Shown piece after piece: positions 1-18,342 of a stretch of DNA of 23,908 bases (the first letter of the stretch is position 1; each line of letters starts with the position of its first letter). The notes beneath the pieces were generated by a model. It searched no databases and was not told the DNA's origin. It saw nothing but the letters and a program-made list of their open reading frames with translations. The stretch comes from Gemmatimonadota bacterium (lineage in GTDB: Bacteria; Gemmatimonadota; Gemmatimonadetes; Gemmatimonadales; GWC2-71-9): positions 1 through 23,908 of the forward strand of contig QHTZ01000107.1 in the NCBI GenBank assembly GCA_003221005.1, in the 5' to 3' direction. The position numbers were made by a program, and so were the translations under genes.

Positions 1-1279
1 CGCCGAAGATCGCGAACAGGCTGCCCCCGAATAGCACGTAGTGCAGGTGCGCGACGATGAAGTAGGTGTCGTGGATGAACATGTCCAGCGGCGTCGCGGC
101 CATGAAGATCCCCGACAGCCCGCCGATCGTGAACATCGCCACGAACCCGATCGCGTTCAGCATCGGCGTGTGGAACTGGAGGTTCCCCCGCCACATCGTG
201 CCCATCCAGTTGAATACCTTGATCGCCGAAGGCACCGCGATCAAGAGCGTGGACACCATGAACGTGGAGCCCAGCGTCGGGTTCATCCCGCTCACGAACA
301 TGTGGTGGCCCCACACGATCCAGCCCAGGAAGGCGATCCCGCAGATCGCGAACACCATCGAGTGATAACCGAAGATCGGCTTGCGGCTGCCGTTCGCCAC
401 GAGATCCGAGACCATTCCCATCGCGGGGAGGATGAGGATGTACACCTCCGGGTGCCCGAAGAACCAGAACAGGTGCTGCCACAGGAGCGCCTGGCCGCCG
501 GCGCCCGGATCGAAGAAGTGCGTCCCGAGGATCTGCTCGAAGAGCAGCATGATCGCCGCCCCCGCGAGCACCGGCACCGCGAGCAGGCCGAGGATCGCCG
601 TGATGAACAGCGCCCACACGGAAAGGGGCATCCGGAACCAGGTCATCCCCGGGGCGCGGTTGTTGATCACCGTCGAGATGTAGTTCAGGGATCCGAGCAC
701 AGACGACAGACCGAAGAAGATGATCGAGATGGACCACAGCTCCTGGCCGAGCGACGAGCCGGAGAGATCGTGCCGCGCTGACAGCGGGGTGTACATCGTC
801 CAGCCCGCGCGCGCCGCCCCCTCGGGCACGAACATGCTGGCGAACATCAGAATGCCGGCCACAAACGCCGACCAGAAGGACGCCATGTTGATGCGCGGGA
901 ACGCCATGTCGTGCGCGCCGAGCTTGAGCGGGATCAGGAAGTTCGCGTACACCCCGACGAGCAGCAGCATGATGGCGAAGAACACCATGAACGTGCCGTG
1001 CATCGTCACGAGCTCGATGTAGTACTCCGGCAAGAGCACTCCACCCGAGGCCATCGTCTCCGGGAGCAGCTTGCCTAGCGGCATCGGCTGGCCCGGGAAC
1101 CCCTCCTGCCAGCGGATCTGCATCGCGAGTATCCCGCCGACCAGCAGGGAGAAGAGGCTCAGGAACAGGAATTGAATCCCGATGATCTTGTGATCGGTCG
1201 AGAACACGTACTTCCGGACGAAGCTCCGGTCGTCGTGATGCGCGTGAACGGCGTGCGCCGTCGCGGCTGCGGTACTCAT
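1..1279 (-). CDS. coxA: Cytochrome c oxidase subunit I, A1-type heme-copper oxidase (partial; 3' end outside window)
   Basis: Not in the ORF track; translated by hand from ATG at 1279, which overlaps the coxB stop (ATGA). Reads MSTAAATAHAVHAHHDDRSFVRKYVFSTDHKIIG, then TMHGTFMVFF, GAHDMAFPRIN (D-channel Asp), WQHLFWFFGHPEVYILILP, VWGHHMF (CuB), AVPSAIKVFNW (K-channel Lys) and HDTYFIVAHLHYV. Confidence 0.97.
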   Translation of the reverse strand, partial: MSTAAATAHAVHAHHDDRSFVRKYVFSTDHKIIGIQFLFLSLFSLLVGGILAMQIRWQEGFPGQPMPLGKLLPETMASGGVLLPEYYIELVTMHGTFMVFFAIMLLLVGVYANFLIPLKLGAHDMAFPRINMASFWSAFVAGILMFASMFVPEGAARAGWTMYTPLSARHDLSGSSLGQELWSISIIFFGLSSVLGSLNYISTVINNRAPGMTWFRMPLSVWALFITAILGLLAVPVLAGAAIMLLFEQILGTHFFDPGAGGQALLWQHLFWFFGHPEVYILILPAMGMVSDLVANGSRKPIFGYHSMVFAICGIAFLGWIVWGHHMFVSGMNPTLGSTFMVSTLLIAVPSAIKVFNWMGTMWRGNLQFHTPMLNAIGFVAMFTIGGLSGIFMAATPLDMFIHDTYFIVAHLHYVLFGGSLFAIFG

Positions 1280-2025
1280 GACGTGGATGCCCCTTTCGCC
1301 TTGGCGGCCTCCTGCTGCAGCCAAGCATCGTATTCGGCTTGCGTGTGGACGAACACCCGTGCCCGCATCTTGTAGTGGCTCATGCCACACAGCTGCGAGC
1401 AGCCGACCTCGTAAGTGCCGGGAACCGTGGCCTCAAACCACACCCTGATGTTCATGCCCGGGACGGCGTCCTGCCGCACCCGGAACTGCGGCACGTAGAA
1501 GGAGTGGATGACATCCTCCGACGTCAGCATCACGACGACCGGCCGCCCCACCGGCACGTGCAGCTGGTTGCGGATGACGATGTCGTCCTGGGCCGCCGGG
1601 TCACTCCGGTCCAGCCCTGTCGGGTTCACGGTTTCCTGGATCAATTCCGGGGAGACGCGGCCGAGCTTGCCGTCGGCGCCCGGATAGGTGAACCACCACT
1701 CGAACTGCTTCGCGTGCACGCCGATCGGGTAGGCGTTCGCCGGCACACTGTTGCGGCCCTTGATCTTGACCCAGAGGCCGTTGCTCGTGAGTCCCAGAAT
1801 CACCATCGTGACCGCCGGGATGGCCGTCCAGATCACCTCCGCACGGGTATTCCCGTGCGTGTAGAAGGCCTTGCGCCCCGGGCGGTTCCGGTAAGCGATC
1901 ACGAAGTAGACGAGCCCCACCTCGACCAACACGAACGTGATCCCGGTGATGATGAGGATCGCCGTGAACATCCAGTCGATGGGCGCCGCGAACGTCGAGG
2001 CCTGCGGTGGCAGCCACCAGGTCAT
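1276..2025 (-). CDS. coxB: Cytochrome c oxidase subunit II (CuA), no fused cytochrome c
   Basis: Two N-terminal TM helices, EVIWTAIP, QFEWWFTYP, DVIHSF, and CuA motif CSQLCGMSHYKM. Confidence 0.96.
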   Translation of the reverse strand: MTWWLPPQASTFAAPIDWMFTAILIITGITFVLVEVGLVYFVIAYRNRPGRKAFYTHGNTRAEVIWTAIPAVTMVILGLTSNGLWVKIKGRNSVPANAYPIGVHAKQFEWWFTYPGADGKLGRVSPELIQETVNPTGLDRSDPAAQDDIVIRNQLHVPVGRPVVVMLTSEDVIHSFYVPQFRVRQDAVPGMNIRVWFEATVPGTYEVGCSQLCGMSHYKMRARVFVHTQAEYDAWLQQEAAKAKGASTS

Positions 2026-2038
2026 GGAGCGTCTCCCT

Positions 2039-2770
2039 CTATTTCGCCGTGAAGGTCAAGTCCGCCGTCTTCGTCTCCGCCGCCTTCACCGTCACCGTCG
2101 CCGTCTGCGTGCCGTACTTCTCATGCCACGCCTCGATCGTATACGTCCCCGGGGGAAGGCCCTTGATGCTGTAGCTGCCGTCCGTGCCGGTCGCAGAATA
2201 GAAGGGATGCGATAGCACGCCGGCAAAGGCGTGCATCCACCCGTGCACGTTGCACGCGAACGGCAGCATCACCTCGACCGCCGCAAATCCCGGCCGGTTG
2301 GTGGTCATGGTCGTGGGCTGGCTGATGTTGAACGGCCGGTTCTTCTTGCCCAGCGCCTTGATGTTGTGGAGGATCCCGTCGCTGTTCTTGATCGCGAGCG
2401 TCTGGCCGACCATGATCCCAAACACCCTGGGATGGTACATGCAGCCGTTCTGATCGATCTCCACGGGGGTGGCGGGCGTCGGGTACTTGGCGTCGGCCGG
2501 GAGCCCCGTCTTCACGTACACGAACACGTTTGCCAGCGTGCCGTTGGCGTTGACCTGGACGATGAGCTCGCGGGGCGGCGTGGTGTACTTCGCCGCGCAC
2601 TTGGCCTCCTCGCTCATGTCGATGACCGGGTTCGCCGGCGCCTTGCCGACGAACTTTACTTTCCCCGTCACCGTGGCGCCGTCGAGCGCGGCCTCCGCGC
2701 CCGGGGTGCTCCCCAAGGCCCACACCAGGAGACCAGCCCCGATCGCCGCCGCCGAACCGAGTTTACGCAT
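2039..2770 (-). CDS. Exported cupredoxin-like protein with C-terminal carboxypeptidase-regulatory-like beta-sandwich
   Basis: Signal peptide ending near AEAA; type-1-copper-like ligands NSDGILHN...CNVHGWM; C-terminal TDGSYSIKGLPPGTYTIEAWHE. SD GGAGG upstream. Confidence 0.8.
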   Translation of the reverse strand: MRKLGSAAAIGAGLLVWALGSTPGAEAALDGATVTGKVKFVGKAPANPVIDMSEEAKCAAKYTTPPRELIVQVNANGTLANVFVYVKTGLPADAKYPTPATPVEIDQNGCMYHPRVFGIMVGQTLAIKNSDGILHNIKALGKKNRPFNISQPTTMTTNRPGFAAVEVMLPFACNVHGWMHAFAGVLSHPFYSATGTDGSYSIKGLPPGTYTIEAWHEKYGTQTATVTVKAAETKTADLTFTAK

Positions 2771-2823: not shown

Positions 2824-4395
2824 TTACCCTCGCGCCGCAGCCCGCCTGCCGTCACGGCGCTGCGCCCGCACCACCACCAGCATCCCCAGCCCCAAGGTCA
2901 CCACCATCGCGATCACCGGAGAGATGAAGGTCCCGGGCGGCGTCGGCTGGTCCAGGGCGAGGAAGTACCAGGTACTCAGCGCCATCCGCGTATCGCGCTC
3001 CGCGCTCGAGCCGTCCCACGCGAAGAACGCCACGGGGATGGCCCGGCCCACGGCGAACTGAAGTTCGTTCGCCGTATCGGCGGTCGCAAGGGTACGGGTG
3101 AAGACCACCCGCCACTGGCCGTGGTCCCACACCGCCCGCGCCGCCGGTCCGCTCGCGGGCGGCAGGGTGTCGAAGCGGTCGATTCCCCGGGCGAGGCCCG
3201 CCACTGCGCCCCGCGGCGCGCTGCGCCAGCGCCACTGGTAGACGGACCCCGAGTTCGACCCCATCAGGAAGTACGGCCGCTCCATCCCCTCGGGGATCTT
3301 CGGCGGAAACTGCACGGCCAGCTGATCGGGCCACGGCGCTAGGGTCTGCGGCCCCGAATCGTCGCTCGCCATCGTCTGGAGCAGTCGCCGCGTGTACTTG
3401 TTCCATCCTGTATCCGGGCTCTGCGAGCGGTCGTCCCAGGTGAGCCGCACCGCGATCGCGTTGCCGTTGTGCAGCGCCTGCACCCAGATCGCCGCCACCG
3501 CGGGCGCGAACCAACGCGGCTTGCGGATGATCTGGCCAACGAGCGGGAAGTAGTAGTCATCCACGCGGCTCCAGGCGGAGTCGTCTGGGGACACGGGCAG
3601 CGTGCCCGCGATCTGGCGCGCGTGAATCACATCCCGCACCTCGGGCGCCTTGGGCGGCGACAGGCTGCGCACGTACTGCGCCACCCGCCACAGTTGCTCC
3701 TCGGTGAGGAACTTCTGGTCGAGCAGGTCGGAGAACGACGGCATCGGCGTGCCGTCGAGCCCGGTCCGCAGCTGGCGGTAAATGTCTTCCGCCGTCGCGC
3801 CGCCGCGGAAGCGCCAGTTTTCGTGGAGGTCGGCTGCCAAGATCGGCTGCCCGGGATCGTCCTTGAGATCGGGGGCCGAGGGCCCATCGCCGCGCCCCTG
3901 GGGGCCGTGACACTTATAGCAATGGATCGAATCGTAGAACTGCCGCCCGACCCGGAGGGCTTCGGCACCCGTGCCACCGCCCGGCTCGCTCGAGAACTTG
4001 AGCAGCTGCGGGTGCTGGCTCGTGTCGCTGAAAAAAGACGAGAACGTCTTGAGGTACGCCATCACGTTGCGGCGCTCGCCGTCCGAGAGCCGCGTCTGCC
4101 ACGCGGGCATGGCGGTGCCGGGGAGCCCTTCGTCGATGGCGCGCATGAGGTCCGCGTCCGTGGGGAGCTGGCCGCTCGCAGTGGTGCGGATCTTGTAAAC
4201 TGCGCCGGTGAAGTCGCGGGGCCGCGGCAGCATGTACAGCGCGGCCACGCCCTTGCCGTCCCCGGTCTCCCCGTGGCAGCCGGCGCACCATTTCACATAG
4301 ACGGTCTTGCCGGCGGTGGTGTCTTGGGCGGACAGTCGCACAGTCGGACTGACGGACAGAAACACCGCCAGCGCGCCTATCAGTCCGACCCTCAT
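2824..4395 (-). CDS. Diheme cytochrome c fused to an ethylbenzene dehydrogenase gamma-like (EbdC/DOMON-type) heme b domain, with C-terminal TM anchor
   Basis: Start moved to ATG 4395 (MRVGLIG signal peptide, ATGA overlap). CAGCH...GLPGTAMP and CYKCH...GLDGTPMP; then RLTWDD, DQLAVQFP, YFLMG, WRVVFTR, AFFAWDG...ER...STWY; terminal TM helix. Confidence 0.85.
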   Translation of the reverse strand: MRVGLIGALAVFLSVSPTVRLSAQDTTAGKTVYVKWCAGCHGETGDGKGVAALYMLPRPRDFTGAVYKIRTTASGQLPTDADLMRAIDEGLPGTAMPAWQTRLSDGERRNVMAYLKTFSSFFSDTSQHPQLLKFSSEPGGGTGAEALRVGRQFYDSIHCYKCHGPQGRGDGPSAPDLKDDPGQPILAADLHENWRFRGGATAEDIYRQLRTGLDGTPMPSFSDLLDQKFLTEEQLWRVAQYVRSLSPPKAPEVRDVIHARQIAGTLPVSPDDSAWSRVDDYYFPLVGQIIRKPRWFAPAVAAIWVQALHNGNAIAVRLTWDDRSQSPDTGWNKYTRRLLQTMASDDSGPQTLAPWPDQLAVQFPPKIPEGMERPYFLMGSNSGSVYQWRWRSAPRGAVAGLARGIDRFDTLPPASGPAARAVWDHGQWRVVFTRTLATADTANELQFAVGRAIPVAFFAWDGSSAERDTRMALSTWYFLALDQPTPPGTFISPVIAMVVTLGLGMLVVVRAQRRDGRRAAARG

Positions 4396-5192
4396 TTCGC
4401 ACCGCCTTCGGCCTTCTCCCACGTCCGCGGCTTCCACCCGGTCTGATCGTACAGGAATAGGATCACCGCCCAGATCTGGCGCTCCGTGAGGAAGTCTTCC
4501 CAGCGCGGCATCGCCGAGTTCCAGGGCGTGCCCTCACGCGGCAGACCGGGCCCGCCCTTCGCAACCCGCCAGAAGACGAAGCTCTCGGTGAGCTGGGCGA
4601 TGGTCCCATTGTCCTGGAAGTTGGCTGGCAGCGGATTGAAACCGGCCGCGAAGTGTCCCAGACCATCCAAGTGATCCCCGTGACAGGGCAGGCAGTTCTG
4701 GTAGTAGATCTCCTTGCCGTAGGCCGTAAACGCGGCGAGCGACTCGGGCTGCTGGCGCAGCGGATTCTCGAGCCCGGTGAGCGTCATTGTCTTGCCGCGG
4801 AACGTGACCTCGGCGGGCGGCGCCGGATGGATCGAACGCAGGTTGGGGGGCGCCGCGACCGTCGTGCGCACCTGCCCGAACGTGACCCAGCCGACGAGCA
4901 GCGTGACGACCGCGAGCACCAGGATGCGCACGAGCCGCAGTCGCTGCTCGACCAGCATCGCCACGAGCGGCTGCTTGAAGAGCGCCCAGCGCTCATCGTT
5001 GTCGCTCACGTAAATCAGCACGCCGACTAGCACCGTGACCATGTACTGCAGCACGACGCTGCTCGGAACGAGCGAGCTGCCTGGCAGCAATGGCACCCCG
5101 TAGACGATGACGAGATACGCCAGCACCAGCAGCCCCAGGGCCTGCCAGAAGGGGTGGTCCAGGTAGCGCCGGAGGTTGGGCGAACGCGTCAT
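4392..5192 (-). CDS. Membrane-anchored monoheme cytochrome c (three N-terminal TM helices)
   Basis: Three hydrophobic segments, then CLPCH and distal Met in WNSAMP; coupled to both neighbours. Confidence 0.88.
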   Translation of the reverse strand: MTRSPNLRRYLDHPFWQALGLLVLAYLVIVYGVPLLPGSSLVPSSVVLQYMVTVLVGVLIYVSDNDERWALFKQPLVAMLVEQRLRLVRILVLAVVTLLVGWVTFGQVRTTVAAPPNLRSIHPAPPAEVTFRGKTMTLTGLENPLRQQPESLAAFTAYGKEIYYQNCLPCHGDHLDGLGHFAAGFNPLPANFQDNGTIAQLTESFVFWRVAKGGPGLPREGTPWNSAMPRWEDFLTERQIWAVILFLYDQTGWKPRTWEKAEGGAK

Positions 5193-6001
5193 TTGTGCCC
5201 CGCGAGGTATTGTACCAGCGCGTCGAGCTGGGCCGGGCTCATCATCGTCGCGAAGTTCTTCGGCATCACGCCGGCAAGGTTCTCAAAACCCTTCGTGATC
5301 GACGATCCCGGATCCACGATCTTCTGCCGGATCGACTGGGCGTCACGGCGCGAGCCGACGTGGGTCAGGTCGGGCGCCAGGGCTCCCCCCTGGCCGTCGA
5401 GCATGTGGCAGTTGACGCACCCGGCCTCTTTGATGATTGCCTTGGGATCGCTGCTCCCATGGGCGAAACCGCCACCCCCGCCACCCCCGCCACCCCCTGC
5501 CGCAGCGGCCCCTCCCCCGCCGGCCGGCGCCGCCTTCTGGATGTCGGCCCCCGTCACGTCCACCGTGCCCCCCTGCGACTCGAGGAACGCGATCACGGCC
5601 CAGACCTGGTCGGGCGGGATCAGCTTCGTAACCTGCGGCATGATGGGCTGGTAGCCAGCCACGACGTACGCCGTAGGCTGATCGAGGGACTCGTAGAGGT
5701 ACTGCTTGCAGCTCTTCCCCGGCTCGCGCTTGGCGCAGCGTTGGCCGATCGGCCCTGTTCCCTTCTCGTCCGTGAGCAGGTTCGGGGCGCGGGTGCCGAG
5801 GCCGTGACAGGCGACGCAGCCGCCGATGCCGTTGAACACCTTCTCCCCGGCGGCCACCAACTGCTCCGGCGTCGCGTTGGGACCGAGCGTGAGCTTCTGC
5901 GGCACTTCGGACTGCATCTGCGGGATCTTGTTGCAGATGACCGTATACACAAACAGCGTGCCGAGGACGATGCCGACGACCTTGAGGTTAGTGGCCCACA
6001 T
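5189..6001 (-). CDS. Membrane-anchored diheme cytochrome c with Gly/Ala-rich linker
   Basis: N-terminal TM; CVACH...PIMP; poly-Gly linker; CVNCH...APDLTHVG...GVMP. Confidence 0.9.
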   Translation of the reverse strand: MWATNLKVVGIVLGTLFVYTVICNKIPQMQSEVPQKLTLGPNATPEQLVAAGEKVFNGIGGCVACHGLGTRAPNLLTDEKGTGPIGQRCAKREPGKSCKQYLYESLDQPTAYVVAGYQPIMPQVTKLIPPDQVWAVIAFLESQGGTVDVTGADIQKAAPAGGGGAAAAGGGGGGGGGGFAHGSSDPKAIIKEAGCVNCHMLDGQGGALAPDLTHVGSRRDAQSIRQKIVDPGSSITKGFENLAGVMPKNFATMMSPAQLDALVQYLAGHK

Positions 6002-7700
6002 GCCGGCCTCCGCCCTCGCCTGACGACACGAACGTCGACTTCTCGGCGAGCCCGCCGAGCCAGAAGACGAACGCCACGAGACCGAGGAAGATCAGCACAC
6101 ACAGGCTGATCATCTGCGACGCGTACCCGAGCGCCGGGGTCGCGGCGTACTTGCTCGTGTCCTCCATCACCTGCCACACGTGCCAGTACTGGCGGATCCC
6201 GGAGCGGGCAAAGCCCATGAGTCCCATGAGCCAGGTGAACGTCACCGCGAGGATGAAGAGCGCATACTGGGAGCGCGGCGGCATCTTGCCCCACTGGATC
6301 TCCCCCACGGACTTAGCGCCCCGCGCCATGAGGACGTCGATCACGGTGACGAACAGGATGCAGCTCAACACGGCGAGCACCTGGTAGACGCTGAATCCGA
6401 TGCGCACGATCGCTTCGACGAAGTAACCCCGGATCCCGTAGAACAGCACGATCCCGGCCGCGATGACGAACATCGCCGTCTGGATGCGCGTCCCCGTCTC
6501 CGCCCAAGGGACGACGAGCTCCTTGTTGCCGCGCCGGTACATGAGGAACGACAGGAACGTGGTCAGGATCATCAGATTGACCGCCGTGTTCTTGGCGCTC
6601 ATGACGCCGAGGGCGCCGAGCAGCGGGTGGTGTGAGCCACCCATAGCGGCGAGCTCCTTCGAGTCCGCGATCATGGTGTGCGGCGTGCCCCACACGATCG
6701 CGCCCAGCACGAGGACCGTTAGCAGGTACTTGATGTAGGGGCGGAACCGTTCAGCGCCGGGGATGCGCCCCATGCCGATCCACAGGTAGTAGTTGCCGGC
6801 GAGGAACAGGACGGCGATGAGGAACGCCTGGATCACCCACAGCCAGCTCATGAAGCCGCCCATCATGGTGATCCCCATCGACTGGTCGTACTGGTACACC
6901 TCGCGGCCCAGCCAGTAGCCAGCGAAGGGCAGCACGATCAACGCGGAGATCGCGATGAAGTTGCCGACGTAGCCCATCCAGTCGTAGTGGGCGCGCTCCT
7001 CGTCGTTTTGGGCGGCGAGGAAGCGGTAGCTCGCGTACGCCGCGACAATGGCGCCGCCGAACACGACGTTCGCGATGAGCCGATGGACGTTAATCGGCAT
7101 CCAGGTGGCATTGGCGATGGCGTGCCACAGCTTGATGCTGCTCGGGTCCGTGGTGGAAGTGATGTCGCGCGGCGGCGTCATCATGTACGTCAGCCACGAG
7201 TTGGCGATCAGCATCACGATCGTGCCCCAGACGTTCAGCAGGATGCCGAGGGTCCAGTGGACCAGCTTGGCGCGACCGTACTTCCAGCGGTCCCACCCGT
7301 AGTAATAGAGGTAGAGGGTGAAGGATTCGAAGAAGAACAGTCCGGCGTACACCCACATGGAGGCCGCGAACACGGCCGTCAGGTACGCCCAGAACCGCGG
7401 GTACAGGGTTGCCAAGAAGAAGACGAGGATCGCCCCCCAGATCGCGGTCGCGCTGTAGGCCACGAGCAGCAGGCGGGTAAACTCCTTCGCGAGCCGGTCG
7501 TAGCGGGCTTCCTTGCCGAAGATCCCGATGGCCTCCGCCACCACGGCGAACATCGGCACGCCGAGCACGAAGGCGGCGAACATGAGGTGCACTTCCGCGG
7601 CGATCCAGACCGCCGCGCGGGCGCCGATGATGGGGAACTCGCCGTAGGCGCGCACGCTGTCGGCGGCGGCGGCAGTGAGGAAAAACAGACCGTCGGCCAT
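5988..7700 (-). CDS. Non-canonical cytochrome bd subunit I-like (CydA-like, 'bd-like') membrane oxidoreductase
   Basis: Polytopic membrane protein with CydA hallmarks: AEVHLMF (helix I His), FFFESFTLYLYYYGWDR, ANSWLTYMMTP, NVHRLIA (b558-type His) and IRQYW (variant of GRQPW). No recognisable Q-loop. Confidence 0.85.
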   Translation of the reverse strand: MADGLFFLTAAAADSVRAYGEFPIIGARAAVWIAAEVHLMFAAFVLGVPMFAVVAEAIGIFGKEARYDRLAKEFTRLLLVAYSATAIWGAILVFFLATLYPRFWAYLTAVFAASMWVYAGLFFFESFTLYLYYYGWDRWKYGRAKLVHWTLGILLNVWGTIVMLIANSWLTYMMTPPRDITSTTDPSSIKLWHAIANATWMPINVHRLIANVVFGGAIVAAYASYRFLAAQNDEERAHYDWMGYVGNFIAISALIVLPFAGYWLGREVYQYDQSMGITMMGGFMSWLWVIQAFLIAVLFLAGNYYLWIGMGRIPGAERFRPYIKYLLTVLVLGAIVWGTPHTMIADSKELAAMGGSHHPLLGALGVMSAKNTAVNLMILTTFLSFLMYRRGNKELVVPWAETGTRIQTAMFVIAAGIVLFYGIRGYFVEAIVRIGFSVYQVLAVLSCILFVTVIDVLMARGAKSVGEIQWGKMPPRSQYALFILAVTFTWLMGLMGFARSGIRQYWHVWQVMEDTSKYAATPALGYASQMISLCVLIFLGLVAFVFWLGGLAEKSTFVSSGEGGGRHVGH

Positions 7701-8977
7701 CAGCCGTCAGCCTCAGTGAAGAACGGCCGTCGCTTCGAGAAATCGACCGGTAGCGCGCTCCGAACCTCGGACAAGAGCTCCAGGGTCACCTCGCGCCCGC
7801 CGTGCCGTCGGGCGTACTCCTCCACGCGCTGCATCACCACGCCGCGTACGAACGAGGGAATCCGCTCGAGGCGCGCGAGCGCCGCGGGGCTCCAGCCGAG
7901 CGCCCGCCGGAACTCGGCGCCGTACGTCACGGCGCGCTGCGGCTCCACCAGCGGGGCGCCGACCCGCGGCTCGTAGGTGCACGACGGGTCGGCGGCGAGC
8001 ACGTCGCCGGTCGTGGCGAACGCCCGCGCCCGGCACCCGCCGCACAGCGCGCGGTACTCGCACACACCGCACTTGCCGCCGAGCGTTCCCTCGCGCAGCT
8101 GGCGGAACAGGGGGGCCTCGCGCCAGATCTCGCCGAACGACTGCCGGGATAGATCGCCCGCGACCTCCGGCAGGTAGGGGCAGGGCGTGAGCTTGCCGTC
8201 GGGCGTGATGCGGCAGTACTGCGTGCCGCACGGGCAGCGCGTCTCGTAATTGAGCACCGGCGACTCGGGATCGGCCGCGTGCACGTGCCGCATGAAGTGC
8301 GGCGCGCACTTGGAGCGCACGAGCATGGTCCCGCGGTAGTCGCGCTGCCAGCGCGCCAGGTCGGCGAGCACTGCTTCATACTCCGCCGGGGGAAGGTCGG
8401 AGAGCCCGGCGCCGCGCCCGGTCGGCACCAGGAAATAGCAGTTGAACGCCACGGCCCCTTGCTCGGCGGACCAGGCAACGAGGCGCTCGAGCTCGGCGCG
8501 GTTGCCCTTGGTCGCCGTGGTCTGGATGATGAAATCCAGGCGCCGCTCCCGGAGCCGGGCGAGCGCGCCCTGCGTGTCGGCGAGCGAGCCCCGACCGTGC
8601 CGGAAGTTGTCATGATAGGACGGGCGCAGCGAATCCACGCTTACCGCGACGCCGCGCACGCCCGCGTCCTGCAGCGCCGCGATCCGGACGTCGGTGAGCA
8701 AGGTGCCATTCGTCCCGACGACGACCGTGGCACCACGCTCGGAGGCATAGCGCGCGATCTCCGTCAGGTCCTCCCGGAGCAGCGGCTCGCCGCCCGACAG
8801 GATCAGGAGCGGGGCGGGGTTCTCCGCCAGGAGCTCGTCCACGATGCGCCGGCAGGTCGCCGTGTCGAGCTCGGCGGTGGCGCGCTCGCCGGGTCCCGCC
8901 GAGATGTAACAGTGAGCGCACTCGAGGTTGCAGCGCCGAGTGAGATTCCACGCGACGACGTGGGGCACGTAGCTCAC
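7700..8977 (-). CDS. Radical SAM/SPASM protein, AhbD/NirJ-like, with C-terminal PCP_red-like domain
   Basis: WNLTRRCNLECAHCY, SGGEPLLR, KCAPHF, SPASM cysteines CPCG...PCPY...CGVC...CGGC...DPSC; tail WSPAALARLERIPSFVRGVVMQRVEEYA...VT. Confidence 0.88.
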   Translation of the reverse strand: MSYVPHVVAWNLTRRCNLECAHCYISAGPGERATAELDTATCRRIVDELLAENPAPLLILSGGEPLLREDLTEIARYASERGATVVVGTNGTLLTDVRIAALQDAGVRGVAVSVDSLRPSYHDNFRHGRGSLADTQGALARLRERRLDFIIQTTATKGNRAELERLVAWSAEQGAVAFNCYFLVPTGRGAGLSDLPPAEYEAVLADLARWQRDYRGTMLVRSKCAPHFMRHVHAADPESPVLNYETRCPCGTQYCRITPDGKLTPCPYLPEVAGDLSRQSFGEIWREAPLFRQLREGTLGGKCGVCEYRALCGGCRARAFATTGDVLAADPSCTYEPRVGAPLVEPQRAVTYGAEFRRALGWSPAALARLERIPSFVRGVVMQRVEEYARRHGGREVTLELLSEVRSALPVDFSKRRPFFTEADG

Positions 8978-8978
8978 G

Positions 8979-10961
8979 TCAGTCGCCTGCCTGCTCCCGC
9001 AACAGCCGCTCCACAGCCTCCTTCGCCTGTTCGGGCTTCACCCCTTTGAAGTCCACGGGGCACTTGCCCATCTTCTCCTCGATATCGCGGATCGGGCAGC
9101 GCGTGATCCCTTGCGCCTTCGCGTCTTCGATGAACGCGCGCATCTCGGGAGTCAACCCGTCCCGTCCTTCGGCTTCGGCGCGGATCTGCTTCGCGCGCAA
9201 CTCGGTGAACATCACCATCATCGTCTCGACGTCGAACTCGTCCGCCTCGATCATCTGCTGCTTGTTGTCGTCCATCACGCGGGTGGTGACGCGCCAGATG
9301 TCGTGGTTGCGGGCAAAGCGCTCCACGGTGTTGCGCGCGAGGGGCCGAGCCACGAGCGGGACGAGCTGCAGGCGCTGCCACGCCTCTTCGGTCCAGACGA
9401 TGGGATCGGTCGCGACGCGCGGCCGGCGGCTCACGGTGCCCGTCACGGGACACTTCGTCTCCACCTCGGCCGCGACCGGCTCGGCGTCCGAGTCGTGACC
9501 CTGGATCTTGGTCACCTTCAGCTGCTCCGTCGCCTTCACCTCCGCGAGCGCGATCTCTTCCGCCGTCCCGATCCCCATGATGAGCTGCATGTGGGTCGGC
9601 AGCAGCTTCCGGATCGCCTCGTCGAGCCACTTGTTGGTGACCGTCGCCTCAGCGCCGCCGGTCTGCTCCAGCACGTACTCCTCCACGGCGCGGCGCGCGA
9701 TCCCCTGCGCGAACGGGGGGACGCGGAGGATGCGCACTTCCGCCTCGGGCGCCCACGGCATCCCCGCCTGGCCGTCCTCCTCGATCCAGGGGATGTCTTC
9801 GGGACGGATCCCCACCGTCCCGGTGAGCAGCGTGTTGCAGGGGGCGATCCGCACCAGGTTTTCAGCCTGGGACCCGAGGTCCGTGCCCTCGATGCGATGG
9901 GCCCCGTGCCGCGCCAGCACGAGCAGCGACGGCTTGATCTCCTCGGCCCACTGCATGATCACCTGGAACGGCTTGCCGATCAGGATCTGCGTCTTGATGG
10001 GGACGTCCGGAAATTCCTGGGCCATCACCTCGGCGCGCTTCAGGTTCGCCTGGCAGAGCTTCAGCAGCCCCTTGTCGATGATGTTGTTGTGCAGCTCTTC
10101 CTGCTCCTCGAACTTGAAGACTTTGGACGCCTGGTACGACAACACGTCCTTGATGTTGTGGAACACCACATGGTGGTACTCCACGTCGAACGCGCTGCAG
10201 ACGTAGAGGGATGCGCCGAACGTCTGGGCCAGCTCGAGCGCGGCGCGCATCGCCTTGTAGCTGTAGGAGGAGCCGTCCACGCACACCAAATAGCGGCCGT
10301 CCGCAAGCGGCCGGTCGTCGCGGACGATCAGCACGTCCTTCTCGACCTCGCGCAGCACGCGCGCCACCACTCCGCCGAGCTGCGAGAACGGCTGCCGCCC
10401 GAGCCCGTGCGCGCCGATCGCCAGCAGGTCGTACTGCCGGCCCGAGGATCCCACGAGCCGCGCCGCCGAATCCTCGTCCTCCGCGATCAGCCGCCCGTTG
10501 GCGCCGACCTGCACGTCGCCGCGCACTTTGTCGCCGCCGTCGTACCCCGCGGCGCGATTGGGATCGAAGCCGATCAAGCCGGGAAGCCGGCCGGCGCCGC
10601 GGTTCACCTCGTTCACGATCTCTTCGTAGTTGATTCCCTCGAGCAGCTGGCGCGTCAACGGCACCCCGGCTTCCTCGCAGTGCTTCCCGAGCCGGTCGAG
10701 GAAGCTGTCCGCGATCAGCTGGAGGCCCTTCTCGATGAGCTTGTCGTGGATCTTGCGCTGTTTCTTGATCTCTTCGGCGGTCTGGAACCGCGCGGGCAGG
10801 CCGGTCTCGAGCTGGCGAAAGCGGACGTCGTGCAGGCGGGCCGCATACACGTGGTTGCCGATGATGCGGCCGTGCGACACGCGACACAACTCGATCGCCC
10901 GGTCGACGGCCCAATCCGAATGCTGCGAATTGTCGACGGGGGCGAAGATCTCGCGGTACAC
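8979..10961 (-). CDS. Tandem universal stress protein domains plus two PCP_red-like domains and a CP-motif tail
   Basis: Start reassigned to GTG 10961 (MYREIFAPVDNS, SD GAGGT). USP1 DLLAIGAHG...LGG; USP2 YLVCVDGS...LLVLARHG...LGS; two PCP_red-like repeats (WAPEAEVRILRVP, WTEEAWQRLQLVP). Confidence 0.85.
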   Translation of the reverse strand: MYREIFAPVDNSQHSDWAVDRAIELCRVSHGRIIGNHVYAARLHDVRFRQLETGLPARFQTAEEIKKQRKIHDKLIEKGLQLIADSFLDRLGKHCEEAGVPLTRQLLEGINYEEIVNEVNRGAGRLPGLIGFDPNRAAGYDGGDKVRGDVQVGANGRLIAEDEDSAARLVGSSGRQYDLLAIGAHGLGRQPFSQLGGVVARVLREVEKDVLIVRDDRPLADGRYLVCVDGSSYSYKAMRAALELAQTFGASLYVCSAFDVEYHHVVFHNIKDVLSYQASKVFKFEEQEELHNNIIDKGLLKLCQANLKRAEVMAQEFPDVPIKTQILIGKPFQVIMQWAEEIKPSLLVLARHGAHRIEGTDLGSQAENLVRIAPCNTLLTGTVGIRPEDIPWIEEDGQAGMPWAPEAEVRILRVPPFAQGIARRAVEEYVLEQTGGAEATVTNKWLDEAIRKLLPTHMQLIMGIGTAEEIALAEVKATEQLKVTKIQGHDSDAEPVAAEVETKCPVTGTVSRRPRVATDPIVWTEEAWQRLQLVPLVARPLARNTVERFARNHDIWRVTTRVMDDNKQQMIEADEFDVETMMVMFTELRAKQIRAEAEGRDGLTPEMRAFIEDAKAQGITRCPIRDIEEKMGKCPVDFKGVKPEQAKEAVERLLREQAGD

Positions 10962-11118
10962 CGGCACCTCGGACGCTAGGGTGCATGCCGGGCACACACC
11001 AATATCTCCCCGAGCCTGGATCGGGTTCGGTCCTATCGAGATAACGCCTGGTGTTATGCTCGGCCGCAGCGGCCGTCAGGCCGCCGCACGATTATCGAGT
11101 CTCGCTTACGCGCCGGCG

Positions 11119-11147
11119 AGTATGGCCAGCGCGGCGGGGCCTGTCAA
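11119..11147 (-). promoter_or_regulatory. Sigma70-type promoter for the USP-to-cox operon
   Basis: Minus strand TTGACA (11147-11142), 17-nt spacer, CATACT (11124-11119). Confidence 0.75.
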
Positions 11148-11150
11148 GTC

Positions 11151-11408
11151 TTAAATCCCGACTCTACTCGGGACAATTTGTCGGCCGGTTTCGTCCCACA
11201 CCGTGATGGCGTCGACGGGGCAAGCATCGCAGGCGCGCAGCAACCGCTCCCGCTCCACTGCCTCCGGCTCGACGAACGCGGCGATCGAGTCTTCGTCCAA
11301 CTTGAAACCCTCTGGCGCGTCCTTCACGCAATCGCCGAACCCGACGCACTGGTCGCGGTCGATGACGACGCGCAGACCATGGACGACCCGCTCCACGAGG
11401 CGACTCAC
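11151..11408 (-). CDS. Monocluster ferredoxin, probably [3Fe-4S]
   Basis: GTG 11408 overlaps the upstream stop (GTGA); 85 aa; IDRDQCVGFGDC...ACDACPVDAI, with the second Cys of CxxCxxC replaced by Phe. Confidence 0.88.
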   Translation of the reverse strand: MSRLVERVVHGLRVVIDRDQCVGFGDCVKDAPEGFKLDEDSIAAFVEPEAVERERLLRACDACPVDAITVWDETGRQIVPSRVGI

Positions 11409-11857
11409 ATCCCCTCGAGACCGAGCTCCGCGCGGGCGGTATCCATGACCGCGGGCGTGATTTCGGCGATGCCGTGGTCCTTGGCGTACTCGGCGTAGAT
11501 CTTCTTCACCATTCCCCGCACGAAGCCCGGCACCTGCGACAGGCGCTGCTGCGCCTCCGCGGACCAGCTGGGGCCAGCGGTCCGCGCCTCCGCCCGCCCG
11601 CTCGCTTCGTCGAACGCGTCCGGTCGCCCGCCGGCGACGTTGCCGCGCACGGTCTCGAGCGGCTGCGCCGGCACGGTCCGCCCGCCGATCACGACGCCCA
11701 AGGAGCTCACGAGCTGCGTCTCGAATGGGTTGGTGAGGAGAGCCGTCACCCGGCCGCAGCTCGGGCACTTGAAGGCCGCGGCAAGAGTTCCGTCTCCCGG
11801 GAGCTGGCGCTCCTCGAACACCATCTGCCGGTCGCACTCGACGCAGAGAAATTTCAT
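11405..11857 (-). CDS. Zn-ribbon (CxxC...CxxC) plus PCP_red-like domain protein
   Basis: ATG 11857 overlaps the mrp stop; MKFLCVECD...FKCPSCG; C-terminal WSAEAQQRLSQVPGFVRGMVKKIYAEYAKDHGIAEITPAVMD. Confidence 0.8.
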   Translation of the reverse strand: MKFLCVECDRQMVFEERQLPGDGTLAAAFKCPSCGRVTALLTNPFETQLVSSLGVVIGGRTVPAQPLETVRGNVAGGRPDAFDEASGRAEARTAGPSWSAEAQQRLSQVPGFVRGMVKKIYAEYAKDHGIAEITPAVMDTARAELGLEGM

Positions 11858-12636
11858 AGGCGCGCGGCGAGCGTCTCCCAGACACCGACCGGGGGGTGAA
11901 ATGGGACGCGCGCCAGCACCGGGACCCCAAACTCCCGCGCGAGGACCTCGGCCGCGTCGCCGCGGAACTGATCCCCCATCATGTTCTCCACGACGCCGAG
12001 AGGGGTCGCGCCCCGTTCCATCGCCGCGCGCAATGCGCGCCGCACGGCGTCGCGCGACTCGGGGGTCGGGATGGTCACGGTCAGCACGGCCGGAGGGCGG
12101 TCGAGCAGGTCCGCGAGCTCCTCGAAGCGCGACAGCCCGGGCGGCAGGTCGACCAGCAGCAGATCGAGTGACCCCCAGGCCACGTCGGCGAGGAACTCGC
12201 GCAGCGCGGCGGCCTCCAGCGCGCCGCGCCACACGAAGCGGTCAGCGGCGGGGCCCCGAAACGCCAGGGGGCGGCCGTCCTCGAGCAGCAGGTCCATGGA
12301 AACAAGCCGCACGCCGTCCGCGCCCGTAGCCGGCAGCACCGCGTCTTCCTCGACGACCAGCGAGGCCCGCCCCGCATCGAGCAATCCCGCTGCGGTGGGC
12401 CCGTTCAAGTCGGCGTCGAGCACGCCGACCGCCCGCCCTCCCCGCGCGACCGCGCGTGCCAGGTGCGCCGTGACGAAGCTCTTTCCGACACCCCCTTTGC
12501 CGCTCATGACGGCGACCACGCGGCCCACCTGAGCGAGGCGCGCGGCCACGCGGTGGCGCTGCGCGCCGATCTGCGCCGGGAGGCCCGACGCGTCGGGCTC
12601 CGTCAGGTCTCGATACGTCCGGATGTTGAGTGGCAC
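11854..12636 (-). CDS. Mrp/ApbC/NBP35-family P-loop ATPase, cysteine-free variant
   Basis: Deviant Walker A SGKGGVGKS, DADLNGP, VWRG, WGSLDLLLVDLPPG, GVVENM. Confidence 0.88.
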   Translation of the reverse strand: MPLNIRTYRDLTEPDASGLPAQIGAQRHRVAARLAQVGRVVAVMSGKGGVGKSFVTAHLARAVARGGRAVGVLDADLNGPTAAGLLDAGRASLVVEEDAVLPATGADGVRLVSMDLLLEDGRPLAFRGPAADRFVWRGALEAAALREFLADVAWGSLDLLLVDLPPGLSRFEELADLLDRPPAVLTVTIPTPESRDAVRRALRAAMERGATPLGVVENMMGDQFRGDAAEVLAREFGVPVLARVPFHPPVGVWETLAARL

Positions 12637-14123: not shown

Positions 14124-15404
14124 TCACCCCAGCACAAACTCCAGACGTCGGTGCGCGTCGCGTAGCGCTGCCTCCACCTCCGCGGGCCCGGGGCCGCGCG
14201 CGAAGATGAAGCCCGGATAGCGCGCGCCCTCGGGTAGCGGCACGAGACGCTGCCCGCGGTGCGCCGTGATGGCGACGTCCTCGACCAGCGGCACGGCGCG
14301 CGCCGCCTCGACTCCTCGGAGCTCGCGCAACTCTCCTGCACCCGGCACGGGAATCATCATCACCCCGGCCGCCTGCCGCTCGCGCTCGAGCGTCGGCAGC
14401 TCCATCGCGAGCGCGTGGCGGATGATCAGCTCCTCGAGGGAGACCCAACCCTTTTCCGTTCCCTCGTCCCCGGTCCCGAATCTCAGCGCCGCGCTACACC
14501 GTCCGCCAATCGGACGGGCGGCCAGCTCGATGAGCCACGGGCCGCGCTCGTTGTATCGCAGCTCGGCGTGGATCGGCCCCTCCACCAGGCCCATTGCTGT
14601 CGCGGCCGCCTGCGTCGTCGCGGCGAGCTCGCACTGCGCCGCAAGGGCCAGGCGCGACGGCGTGACGTAAATGGTTTCCTCGAAGAACGGTCCGTTCAGC
14701 GGATCAGGTTTGTCGAACAGCGCGAGCACCGCTAGGCGCCCGCCCACCAGCAACCCTTCGAGCGCGAACTCAGGGCCGGGGACGAACTGCTCCACGAGCA
14801 CGCTGCGTGCGGACTCGCCGCAGGCGGCGACTTCCGGCTCGGCGAGGATCGCGGCGACTCTTCGAAACGCCGCGACGAACTCGGCCGGACTATCCGCACG
14901 GATGACCCCGCGCGACGCGGAGAGTTGCAGCGGCTTGAGGACGCAAGGGTACTCGACCAGGCGACCGAGCGCGGCTGCATCCGCGTCGGCTGGATACAGC
15001 GCGAACCGCGGCACGGCTACGCTCCCCGCGGTCCGGCCCAGGAGCTCGCGCTGCCGGTGCTTGTCGCGCGCCGCCAGCGCCGCCGCCACAGGGTTGCCCC
15101 GGAGCGTCAGCCGCTCGGCGATCGCCGCCGCCACGACGGCCGTGTTGTCGTCCACTCCCAGCACGCCGGCCAGCGGATGCTCCCGCGCGAACGCCGCGGC
15201 CCGAGCGGCTGCGTCCGCGGGAGCGGTGAAGTCAAGGGTCAGGAGCCCGGCCGGCTGGGCCTGCTCGAACGTGCTGGATCGCTCGGACGCCACACTGAGT
15301 GCGATGTCGAGCCGCCGGGCGGCCTCGACGAATGCCGTGGCCCGGTAGGTAGTGGACGGCAGGAGCAACAGCAGTCGCGGGGAAAGCGTGGAAGGGCGCG
15401 GCAT
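14124..15404 (-). CDS. ATP-grasp domain protein (substrate unknown)
   Basis: RDKHRQRE, YPCVLKP...SASRGVIR, LVEQFVPGPEFALE, IHAELR, LIELAARPIGG. Confidence 0.88.
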   Translation of the reverse strand: MPRPSTLSPRLLLLLPSTTYRATAFVEAARRLDIALSVASERSSTFEQAQPAGLLTLDFTAPADAAARAAAFAREHPLAGVLGVDDNTAVVAAAIAERLTLRGNPVAAALAARDKHRQRELLGRTAGSVAVPRFALYPADADAAALGRLVEYPCVLKPLQLSASRGVIRADSPAEFVAAFRRVAAILAEPEVAACGESARSVLVEQFVPGPEFALEGLLVGGRLAVLALFDKPDPLNGPFFEETIYVTPSRLALAAQCELAATTQAAATAMGLVEGPIHAELRYNERGPWLIELAARPIGGRCSAALRFGTGDEGTEKGWVSLEELIIRHALAMELPTLERERQAAGVMMIPVPGAGELRELRGVEAARAVPLVEDVAITAHRGQRLVPLPEGARYPGFIFARGPGPAEVEAALRDAHRRLEFVLG

Positions 15405-15413
15405 GCCGCGGCC

Positions 15414-16019
15414 CTACTTCTTGGCGGCGGCGAAGTAGGGGTTTGAGCCTGCCGAATGATCCGTGATGTCCACGATGCCTTTGACGCCCGGCACGTGCTG
15501 GTGCAGCATCGCTTCGATACCCTGGCGCAGGGTCACGTCGGCCATGCCGCATCCCTGGCAGCCTCCGCCCATCCGCAGCATCACGACGTGGTCTTGCACG
15601 TCGATCAGCTCCACGACGCCGCCGTGCCGTGCGACCATGGGATTGACCTGGGTCTCAAACAGTCGCGAGACCCGCTCGTACAGTTCGTCGTCGTCCGCCG
15701 GCGTGCCTGGGGGCGCTTGCCGGGGGGCGACCGCGGGCGCACGGGCCGCGAGCGCCGCACGGATCGCCGCGCCGACCGCCGGGCCAAGCGCCGCCCAGGG
15801 CGTGGGGCCGCGCTTCACGGCGGTGACCAGGTGACCCGACACGACGACCTCGGTGATTCCCGGGATCGCGAACAGCGCCTCGGCGAGGGGCGAGCCCTTG
15901 GCGTCCTCGGGCGACGCGAACCGGCGCACGCCGCCCACGTGCACCGGCTGGCCGACGATGAACTTGCAGCGATCGTTGTCGATCGGCTCGGCGGTGATGC
16001 GGACGTCTGCGGTGCTCAT
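15414..16019 (-). CDS. Nfu-type Fe-S carrier (Nfu N-terminal domain plus NifU-C domain)
   Basis: ATG 16019; SPLAEALFAIPGITEV; VNPMVARHGGVVEL...MGGGCQGCG...DITDH. Confidence 0.9.
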   Translation of the reverse strand: MSTADVRITAEPIDNDRCKFIVGQPVHVGGVRRFASPEDAKGSPLAEALFAIPGITEVVVSGHLVTAVKRGPTPWAALGPAVGAAIRAALAARAPAVAPRQAPPGTPADDDELYERVSRLFETQVNPMVARHGGVVELIDVQDHVVMLRMGGGCQGCGMADVTLRQGIEAMLHQHVPGVKGIVDITDHSAGSNPYFAAAKK

Positions 16020-16023
16020 GAAA

Positions 16024-18283: not shown

Positions 18284-18301
18284 AGGGAGCGGAATCTACC
18301 C

Positions 18302-18342
18302 AAAAAAACATCGCGCCGGACCGTTGCGACTGGCCCGGCGCG
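18302..18342 (-). terminator. Intrinsic terminator of the ECF operon
   Basis: Minus strand CGCGCCGGGCC-loop-GGTCCGGCGCG followed by ATG and T7. Confidence 0.7.

Follow-up and report, generated by a model that had tools for sequence, protein, structure and literature searches.

The cytochrome bd superfamily was split by Murali, Gennis and Hemp into the qOR, OR-C and OR-N families (preprint 10.1101/2021.01.16.426971). OR-N proteins are described there as having no quinol site and operons with alternative electron donors; the N1 and N2 types have 14 transmembrane (TM) helices, and OR-N2 often occurs without a second cydA-like gene close by. OR-N was read as a likely cytochrome c:O2 reductase in the preprint and in PMC10839748. 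We investigated a relative of these proteins that is encoded in a stretch of DNA of 23,908 nucleotides (nt) from a Gemmatimonadota bacterium (contig QHTZ01000107.1 of GCA_003221005.1). We call this stretch the window; it is contig C22 of a genome of 2.79 Mb, 93.9% complete, and its G+C content is 64-73%. The gene lies at positions 5988..7700 on the minus strand and encodes a bd-like CydA homologue of 570 amino acids (aa) with 13 predicted TM helices. We give a probability of about 0.5 to the reading that this gene encodes the membrane core of an OR-N-type bd-like complex, a cytochrome-c-dependent oxygen reductase with three haems and a proton path through E125, S126 and H148.

Related proteins have been described from Nitrospirota. 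The protein NIDE0901 was assigned to OR-N2 (PMC12342949); a copper site was proposed for it, and haem b and copper sites for one Nitrospira bd-like protein, bd-like_2 (PMC6606698). A bd-like protein with 14 TM helices, with extra helices instead of the Q-loop, was found in a gene cluster that also encodes an alternative NxrC, cupredoxins and cytochromes c with one or two haems, and the same module is present in anammox bacteria (PMC3578206). TO_1 gene clusters that include a periplasmic cytochrome b are described in PMC9040806. Nitrite-oxidising Nitrospira and Nitrospina are presumed to use OR-N bd-like proteins as their main or sole terminal oxidases, and the passages of PMC10839748 on this family state that none was purified and that the family is so far without experimental characterisation. 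We found no paper in a literature search pairing 'bd-like' with Gemmatimonadota or Gemmatimonadetes, and none in a search for a cryogenic electron microscopy study of a bd-like oxidase.

The initial annotation of the window had placed a CydA-like open reading frame (ORF) at 5988..7700. Both the ORF call and the Pfam match agreed with it, and the strand was corrected to minus. Cyt_bd_oxida_I (PF01654) was the sole Pfam family matched by the protein (E 4.7e-19, 68.7 bits, cut-off 26.2), and NCBIfam models gave no match. The protein was placed in the cytochrome bd superfamily by this match, by H38, which falls on His21 of Geobacillus CydA (5DOQ), and by the fit of its AlphaFold2 (AF2) model to 6rx4_A (VIA Z 35.2). 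The model was built from a 47-sequence alignment and reached pLDDT 89 and pTM 0.88. Thirteen TM helices in it were confident, and residues 6-16 formed one more short helix, at the N-terminus and of low confidence. The N-terminus of relatives is longer by 40-120 residues. The closest structures were CydA chains (Foldseek E 6.8e-10 to 6rx4_A; VIA Z 32-35 with 346-361 residues aligned), and no nearer solved structure was found, a family-profile search included. The nearest homologues were 82-92% identical, and those with names came from metagenome-assembled genomes of Gemmatimonadales.

We compared the residues of the protein with those of canonical CydA. In E. coli haem b558 is bound by His186 and Met393, b595 by Glu445 and haem d by His19, and Glu99 lies 5.1 Å from the haem d iron (PMC8585947). 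The alignment to 5DOQ was made with phmmer and was ungapped (query 21-123, chain 4-106). The alignment to the canonical CydA encoded in the same genome was an hhalign of the family alignment A1 and covered residues 27-272 only (probability 97.8). Conservation was counted in three samples: family members clustered at 50% identity (representatives, with denominators that vary per column); 80 syntenic Gemmatimonadota loci, 70-90% identical and found with a single-protein query (orthologues); and 119 homologues of the Nitrospirota protein P0143 (Nitrospirota relatives). All residues are given with their positions on the minus strand of the window.

The protein keeps the TM1-6 scaffold of canonical CydA. 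H38 (7587..7589), the equivalent of the haem d ligand His19, was His in 72/77 representatives, 79/80 orthologues and 118/119 Nitrospirota relatives. H206 (7083..7085) corresponds to the b558 ligand His186 in the alignment to the genome's own canonical CydA, and it was His in 85/93, 80/80 and 119/119, respectively. By the same alignment H148 (7257..7259) is the TM4 His common to canonical CydA; 78 of the 87 representatives have it. E125-S126 (7323..7328) belong to an FFFES motif, in which E125 aligns on Glu108 of 5DOQ, that is, on the proton-channel residue Glu107 of E. coli. E125 was Glu in 60/79 representatives and 80/80 orthologues; it is present in the Nitrospirota branch of P0143 and missing from a sister branch. 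The position of Glu99, which is distal to the active-site haem in E. coli, is taken by Y118 (7347..7349, on Glu101 of 5DOQ), with Tyr in 73/82 representatives, 80/80 orthologues and 118/119 Nitrospirota relatives (the remaining row was gapped there).

The other ligand positions have changed. In local alignments to mycobacterial CydA 9r2g_A, a GRQPW-like loop (R499-S500...R503-Q-Y-W-H507, 6180..6206) had S500 on the Glu445 position and H507 four residues beyond the conserved Arg. H507 was His in 56/71 representatives and in all orthologues (80/80) and Nitrospirota relatives (119/119). The homology of the profile to canonical CydA ended at residue 272 and resumed weakly from residue 433, and the Met393 position fell on L442 by a weak, collinear hhalign of the C-terminal third (probability 25.7), in a column that varies between L, G, A and V with some M. 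G435, in an R-I-G motif, had been taken as the Met393 equivalent and was replaced by L442 after this alignment; Met or His was conserved at neither position. KLAA and K-x4-E motifs were absent from the whole protein, and it contained no CxxCH motif. The protein thus differs from canonical quinol oxidases in the Q-loop residues Lys252 and Glu257, in the adjacent CydB, and in the ligands Met393 (where the alignment is weak) and Glu445. Four statements of the initial annotation are in accord with these data, namely that two haem-ligand His and the FFxES Glu were kept (H38, H206 and E125), that the KLAAxE quinol loop was absent, that no Glu stood at the E99 equivalent, and that none preceded RQYW at the E445 equivalent.

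The same annotation had drawn attention to a WGTPH...GGSHHP motif at about 6627-6680 and had taken its H plus HH as the basis for a haem-metal site. The motif was located correctly. It lies in a predicted periplasmic loop, W337-P359 (6624..6692; sequence and AF2 model), with WGTPH at residues 337-341 and GGSHHP at 354-359, so that H341 to H358 correspond to 6680-6627. P340 was conserved in 92% of representatives. The three His behaved differently from each other. H341 was His in 61/97 representatives (63%; Arg in 18/97), 66/80 orthologues (Asn in 13, Arg in 1) and 117/119 Nitrospirota relatives, and in many members among the representatives and orthologues it was replaced by Arg, Lys or Asn. 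H357 was His in 36/92 representatives (39%), 66/80 orthologues and 0/119 Nitrospirota relatives, where 115 had Gln. H358 was His in 74/93 representatives (80%), 80/80 orthologues and 119/119 Nitrospirota relatives.

Conservation of the triad had been set beforehand as a refuting test, and the triad failed it: it was complete in 59/80 orthologues, and the HH doublet was found in 0/119 Nitrospirota relatives. The remaining 21 orthologues were without H341 and/or H357, 14 of the 80 without H341, with the operon intact. In these alignments the triad H341/H357/H358 is not conserved as one unit and the HH doublet is a local trait of part of the Gemmatimonadota branch. Since H357 is unconserved, H plus HH is not a trait of the family, and the argument for a haem-metal site built on it does not hold, because the triad is not conserved and H341 is often Arg, Lys or Asn. 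Other extra residues were more stable. The GVMSAKN motif at the start of TM9 (M367...K370, 6591..6602) had M367 in 77/97 representatives and K370 in 85/97, and both residues in 80/80 orthologues and 119/119 Nitrospirota relatives; the branch without E125 has Glu in place of M367. By residue counts, H358, M367, K370 and H507 are constant family-wide, H341 less so. The alternative trio H341/H358/H507 occurred in 27 of the 59 representatives that cover all three positions, 66/80 orthologues and 117/119 Nitrospirota relatives; this trio may allow for a metal site in part of the family.

We compared this loop with CuB of haem-copper oxidase subunit I. The H...HH pattern, a conserved Tyr nearby and the location on the outer face of the membrane are alike. 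The fold is different, however, and the bd-like His lie 16 residues apart within one loop and not on two TM helices. Further, three invariant His were not found, as the bd-like triad is unconserved.

The model showed four additional TM helices in the place of the Q-loop, at residues 282-427 (about 145 residues; 6420..6857, minus strand; helices 282-312, 316-338, 367-390 and 400-427). The loop with H341, H357 and H358 (339-366) was modelled at pLDDT 72-75. From the sequence, the Arg/Lys-rich loops 135-141, 313-325, 391-399 and 460-474 were taken as the cytoplasmic side. Therefore H38, Y118, H206, H341, H357, H358, M367 and H507 are all predicted to lie towards the periplasm, as the haems of canonical bd do; this placing rests on topology, not on distances. 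A haem-copper-like module at residues 314-466 was considered and rejected: matches to qNOR, ba3 and cbb3 chains had Z of 6.5-8.2, and helical bundles often give Z values below about 13. Residues 19-564 of the model also aligned with ActC of alternative complex III (6btm_C Z 20.3 over 320 residues, 6lod_C Z 20.1, 6f0k_C Z 19.8), and the model with PsrC (2vpw_C, Z 15.4). This likeness in the predicted model hints at a helical architecture common to CydA-like and NrfD-like subunits. The protein shares with ActC and PsrC, of the NrfD family, the overall helical arrangement and the place upstream of cox genes. It differs from them in that it has no match to their sequence family (PF01654 being its only Pfam match) and in that the genome has an alternative complex III of its own.

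The nearest named relatives were Nitrospirota proteins, with P0143 (Nitrospira/Manganitrophaceae) 39% identical (E 2.2e-120). In a quick tree of 39 rows the protein and the P0143 branch formed one clade (SH-aLRT 95), and the closest ESM Atlas clusters were mostly Nitrospirota. Because of this kinship we filed the protein under OR-N. The preprint defines OR-N by a CydA-homologous subunit I that has neither a quinol site nor haem c motifs, as is the case here, and the operon of our protein contains alternative donors, namely cytochromes c and an NxrC-like haem b protein. On indirect grounds it appears most like OR-N2: E125 is kept in it, as in the P0143 branch of Nitrospirota, and is lacking in a sister branch. 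The initial annotation had described a non-quinol protein without CydB, like the Nitrospira bd-like proteins, and this view is supported. What the annotation proposed on this basis had already been published as a hypothesis, and the family is a known one.

With OR-N2 (NIDE0901-like, and the TO_1-type clusters of Manganitrophaceae) the protein has in common the His19 equivalent, the missing quinol site, the extra TM helices for the Q-loop, the residues H341, H358, M367, K370 and H507, the lack of cydB and of a second cydA-like gene nearby, and an operon in which cytochromes c with one and two haems are encoded together with an NxrC-like periplasmic haem b protein. It differs in its length of about 570 aa, compared with about 620-650 aa, in the extra His at 357 and apparently in the number of TM helices (13 predicted, compared with 14). 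Further, its host is a Gemmatimonadota bacterium of heterotrophic type, in which coxBA stands next to the gene and an AhbD/NirJ-like radical SAM gene lies upstream of it, and no OR-N1 partner exists in the genome. Canonical qOR CydA (E. coli bd-I and bd-II, Geobacillus, mycobacteria) is homologous over TM1-6 and shares the equivalents of His19, Glu107, the TM4 His and His186 and the RQxW loop. In contrast to it, our protein has no Q-loop, no Lys252/Glu257 and no CydB partner, carries Tyr for Glu99 and Ser for Glu445 with Met393 unconserved, and has four inserted TM helices and cytochrome c genes in its operon. It resembles OR-C1a in the absence of a quinol site and in the link to haem c, as some of its relatives have a fused C-terminal haem c domain. 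OR-C proteins, however, are described in the preprint as having 8 TM helices and a C-terminal haem c domain of their own, whereas this protein has 13 and no CxxCH.

Between 12636 and position 2 every gene is encoded by the minus strand. The bd-like gene is preceded by a radical SAM/SPASM gene (7700..8977) with a C-terminal PCP_red domain; it is AhbD/NirJ2-like (NirJ2 292.6 and AhbD 290.5 bits, both below the cut-off of 500), and its stop overlaps the bd-like start (TGATG). Downstream there is a membrane-anchored dihaem cytochrome c of 270 aa (5189..6001; two CxxCH, one TM helix, Pfam Cytochrom_C), whose start overlaps the bd-like stop by 14 nt. A Gly/Ala run at about residues 158-178 of this cytochrome joins its two haem c domains and looks like a flexible linker. 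Then follow a monohaem cytochrome c of 266 aa with 3 TM helices (4392..5192; ATGA overlap with the preceding gene) and a protein that combines a dihaem cytochrome c with an NxrC-like haem b domain and a C-terminal TM anchor (2824..4437; Pfam EB_dh 2.6e-16; likely start ATG at 4395). The latter matched TIGR03477 DMSO_red_II_gam with 94.5 bits, below the cut-off of 169.85. The next gene encodes a periplasmic or secreted CarboxypepD_reg protein (2039..2770; Pfam) with a possible type-1 copper domain (weak match to blue copper protein 5fc9_A, E 0.087). Its CarboxypepD_reg domain is C-terminal, the N-terminal part has Cys-x2-His-x2-Met, and the protein may be a cupredoxin electron carrier to CoxB. 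The series ends with coxB-coxA (2..2025), which encode subunits II and I of cytochrome c oxidase (COX1 3e-121, COX2; TIGR02866 CoxB 156.7 bits, above cut-off); coxA is truncated by the contig end.

The four junctions from the radical SAM gene through the NxrC-like gene are start/stop overlaps, and judging from this arrangement the genes are probably co-transcribed with translational coupling. The neighbourhood was almost the same in the orthologue loci, when only those of the 80 with enough flanking DNA were counted. Upstream we found the radical SAM gene in 76/76 and a Usp-PCP_red gene in 63/63 loci; downstream the dihaem cytochrome c in 71/71, the monohaem cytochrome c in 70/70, the NxrC-like protein in 63/63, the cupredoxin-like protein in 60/61, cox2 in 61/61 and cox1 in 58/59. 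Further, in the representative P0122 (889 aa, with 57% identity) the bd-like protein is naturally fused to the complete dihaem cytochrome c and its anchor (E 6e-35), and in four more representatives the C-terminus is extended by a CxxCH-containing part related to this cytochrome. These fusions are good evidence that the bd-like protein works with c-type cytochromes. The open frames that hold several of the orthologues are 832-943 aa long, a length that points to their being fused to the cytochrome c downstream.

At 8979-12636 (minus strand), upstream of the operon, there follow, with increasing distance from it, genes for a Usp protein in which PCP_red occurs as two stretches, for a protein with a ferredoxin domain and for an Fe-S carrier ATPase of the Mrp/NBP35 type. 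In the 80 loci they were present 76, 54 and 58 times, respectively, and could form a cofactor-assembly set. The genome also has ferrochelatase and ChdC; the radical SAM-PCP_red protein may serve this complex specifically, either by making haem b independently of oxygen or by modifying haem. Genes at 14124-18303 (minus strand; ATP-grasp/L-amino-acid-ligase-like, NifU/Nfu-like, MetE) are ordinary and have no evident operon link.

The claim that the protein is without CydB stands for the locus, as no cydB adjoins the gene; it does not stand for the genome, in which a cydAB pair exists. The sole CydB (PF02322) match was on contig C120, next to the canonical cydA. No CydB turned up in the 80 related loci with the neighbours from the window as queries, CydB itself not having been searched there. 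The canonical cydA (L001:1447-2748, minus strand, on G000:C120) is without positions 78-101 of the Pfam profile and gave two separate matches in one open frame; the missing stretch is TM3 with the Glu99 and Glu107 equivalents, and either an in-frame deletion or an assembly error could account for it. A second bd-like paralogue was not found in the source genome by tblastn with 38 family members; hence it has no OR-N1 partner. In a few other Gemmatimonadota genomes there is a second paralogue about 51-52% identical (G060:C8, G086:C93, G127:C1). Among 201 sampled Gemmatimonadota genomes, which include the unpublished genomes G182, G057 and G097, the bd-like gene was present in 58, and in 29 of 98 genera.

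In the oxygen reductase that we favour, electrons would come from c-type cytochromes and not from quinol. They would enter from periplasmic c haems to a low-spin haem on H206, the sixth ligand of which would be supplied by the inserted bundle, as M367 or H358. A new sixth ligand is proposed because the Met393 position is unconserved, and the loop with M367 and H358 belongs to the bundle replacing the Q-loop, which covers b558 in canonical enzymes. From there electrons would pass to an active-site pair in the TM1-4 bundle, composed of the H38 haem, with Y118 distal to it, and a second haem, for which H507, in the same loop as the lost Glu445, would take over as ligand. Protons would be taken from the cytoplasm via E125, S126 and H148. 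O2 would be reduced to water, and the complex would add to the aa3-type enzyme a second terminal oxidase, probably one of high affinity. H358 and H507 would then be haem ligands, H341 a haem-propionate or structural contact, and H357 incidental.

Ligand replacement, rather than a new metal site, seems the simplest reading, since Glu445 and Met393 are lost while H358, M367 and H507 are constant across phyla. A role of M367 as haem ligand is favoured by its alternation with Glu, a bd-type haem ligand, in the branch without E125, and H341, in changing to Arg, Lys or Asn, behaves as polar contacts typically do and metal ligands do not. We inferred the ligand assignments from conservation and topology only. 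Several points weigh against this reading. Experimental confirmation of OR-N enzymes is lacking according to the passage on them in PMC10839748, and the same module occurs in strictly anaerobic anammox bacteria (PMC3578206), which is a poor fit with oxygen reduction. The C-terminal alignment to canonical CydA is the weak one mentioned above, and the joint presence of H341, H358 and H507 in 27/59 representatives would fit a metal site too. Both cofactors and substrate are predicted.

It is unlikely, in our estimation, that the protein is instead an electron-transfer unit without O2 reduction of its own, which would connect the quinone pool or a periplasmic donor with the c-type cytochromes and the adjacent aa3 oxidase in the manner of alternative complex III, running either forward or in reverse. 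It is true that coxBA follows directly downstream of the gene, the intervening genes encoding membrane-anchored cytochromes c and a cupredoxin-like protein, and that the model resembles ActC and PsrC. A role like that of alternative complex III was proposed by Lucker 2013 for the module, which is also found in anaerobic anammox bacteria (PMC3578206), and cytochrome b (PF00033) was not found in our 93.9%-complete genome. However, the genome encodes a full alternative complex III on contig C70. ActD was present in 190 of the 201 sampled genomes and in 57 of the 58 with the bd-like gene (only G185 was without it). This co-occurrence indicates that the module is accessory and no substitute for complex III, and it weakened the idea, which we had considered, that the module replaces that complex. 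Further, the quinol-site residues are absent, and the features of O2-reducing bd proteins (equivalents of His19 and Glu107, TM4 His) are kept. The cox operon in the window is the only complete one of the genome.

We regard as decidedly unlikely a non-haem metal site like CuB or FeB, formed by conserved His beside a haem, which would make a binuclear centre on a bd scaffold reducing O2 or NO. A copper site had indeed been proposed for the Nitrospira bd-like_2 protein (PMC6606698), as the initial annotation stated. The His of the alternative trio are predicted to be periplasmic and occur together in the three samples at the frequencies given above; the b595 ligand Glu445 has been lost to S500, so the second centre could differ; and the conserved Y118 is found at the distal Glu99 position. 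Nevertheless, H357 is unconserved, orthologues without H341 or H357 keep their operon, and H341 is Arg in 18/97 representatives. The fold is that of CydA and not of COX1, and the similarity of residues 314-466 to qNOR and ba3 chains is within the noise for helical bundles. By inference, the loop with H341 and H358 would lie by the b558-side bundle and H507 in the b595 loop, and the corresponding irons are 15.6 Å apart in E. coli bd-II (PMC8585947).

Little credence is given by us to a more elaborate variant, in which H341, H358 and H507, where present, would bind Cu or non-haem Fe by the H38 haem with Y118 redox-active. The metal ion would replace b595, whose ligand Glu445 is lost, and the protein would be a convergent haem-metal-tyrosine O2 or NO reductase on a bd scaffold, possibly with a haem made or modified by the AhbD/NirJ-like enzyme. 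Finally, it appears very improbable that the protein is a bd-like haem protein, fed by c-type cytochromes, which serves in detoxification or as another kind of reductase (NO, H2O2, nitrite-related). In favour of this role, NO- and peroxide-related activities were reported for canonical bd (PMC10839748; PMC4899803), and the NxrC-like partner can be counted among the haem b subunits that type II DMSO-reductase-family enzymes have (TIGR03477, below cut-off). However, the role has no specific support, and in the 80 loci the operon goes with coxBA and not with nitrogen-oxide genes.

In summary, the new points are a cox-linked, phylum-wide operon in Gemmatimonadota, a coupled AhbD/NirJ-like radical SAM gene, fusion evidence for a cytochrome c partner, and a small set of candidate ligands that are truly conserved. 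Gemmatimonadota commonly carry this core protein, always in one tight operon with cytochromes c, a radical SAM enzyme and an aa3 oxidase. The conservation result removes the argument for CuB from H plus HH, and by comparing the phyla the candidates for cofactor ligands are reduced to H358, M367, K370, H507 and Y118, which can serve as a list for mutagenesis. A cultivable Gemmatimonadota strain with this operon, if one exists, would be more tractable than the slow-growing nitrite oxidisers.

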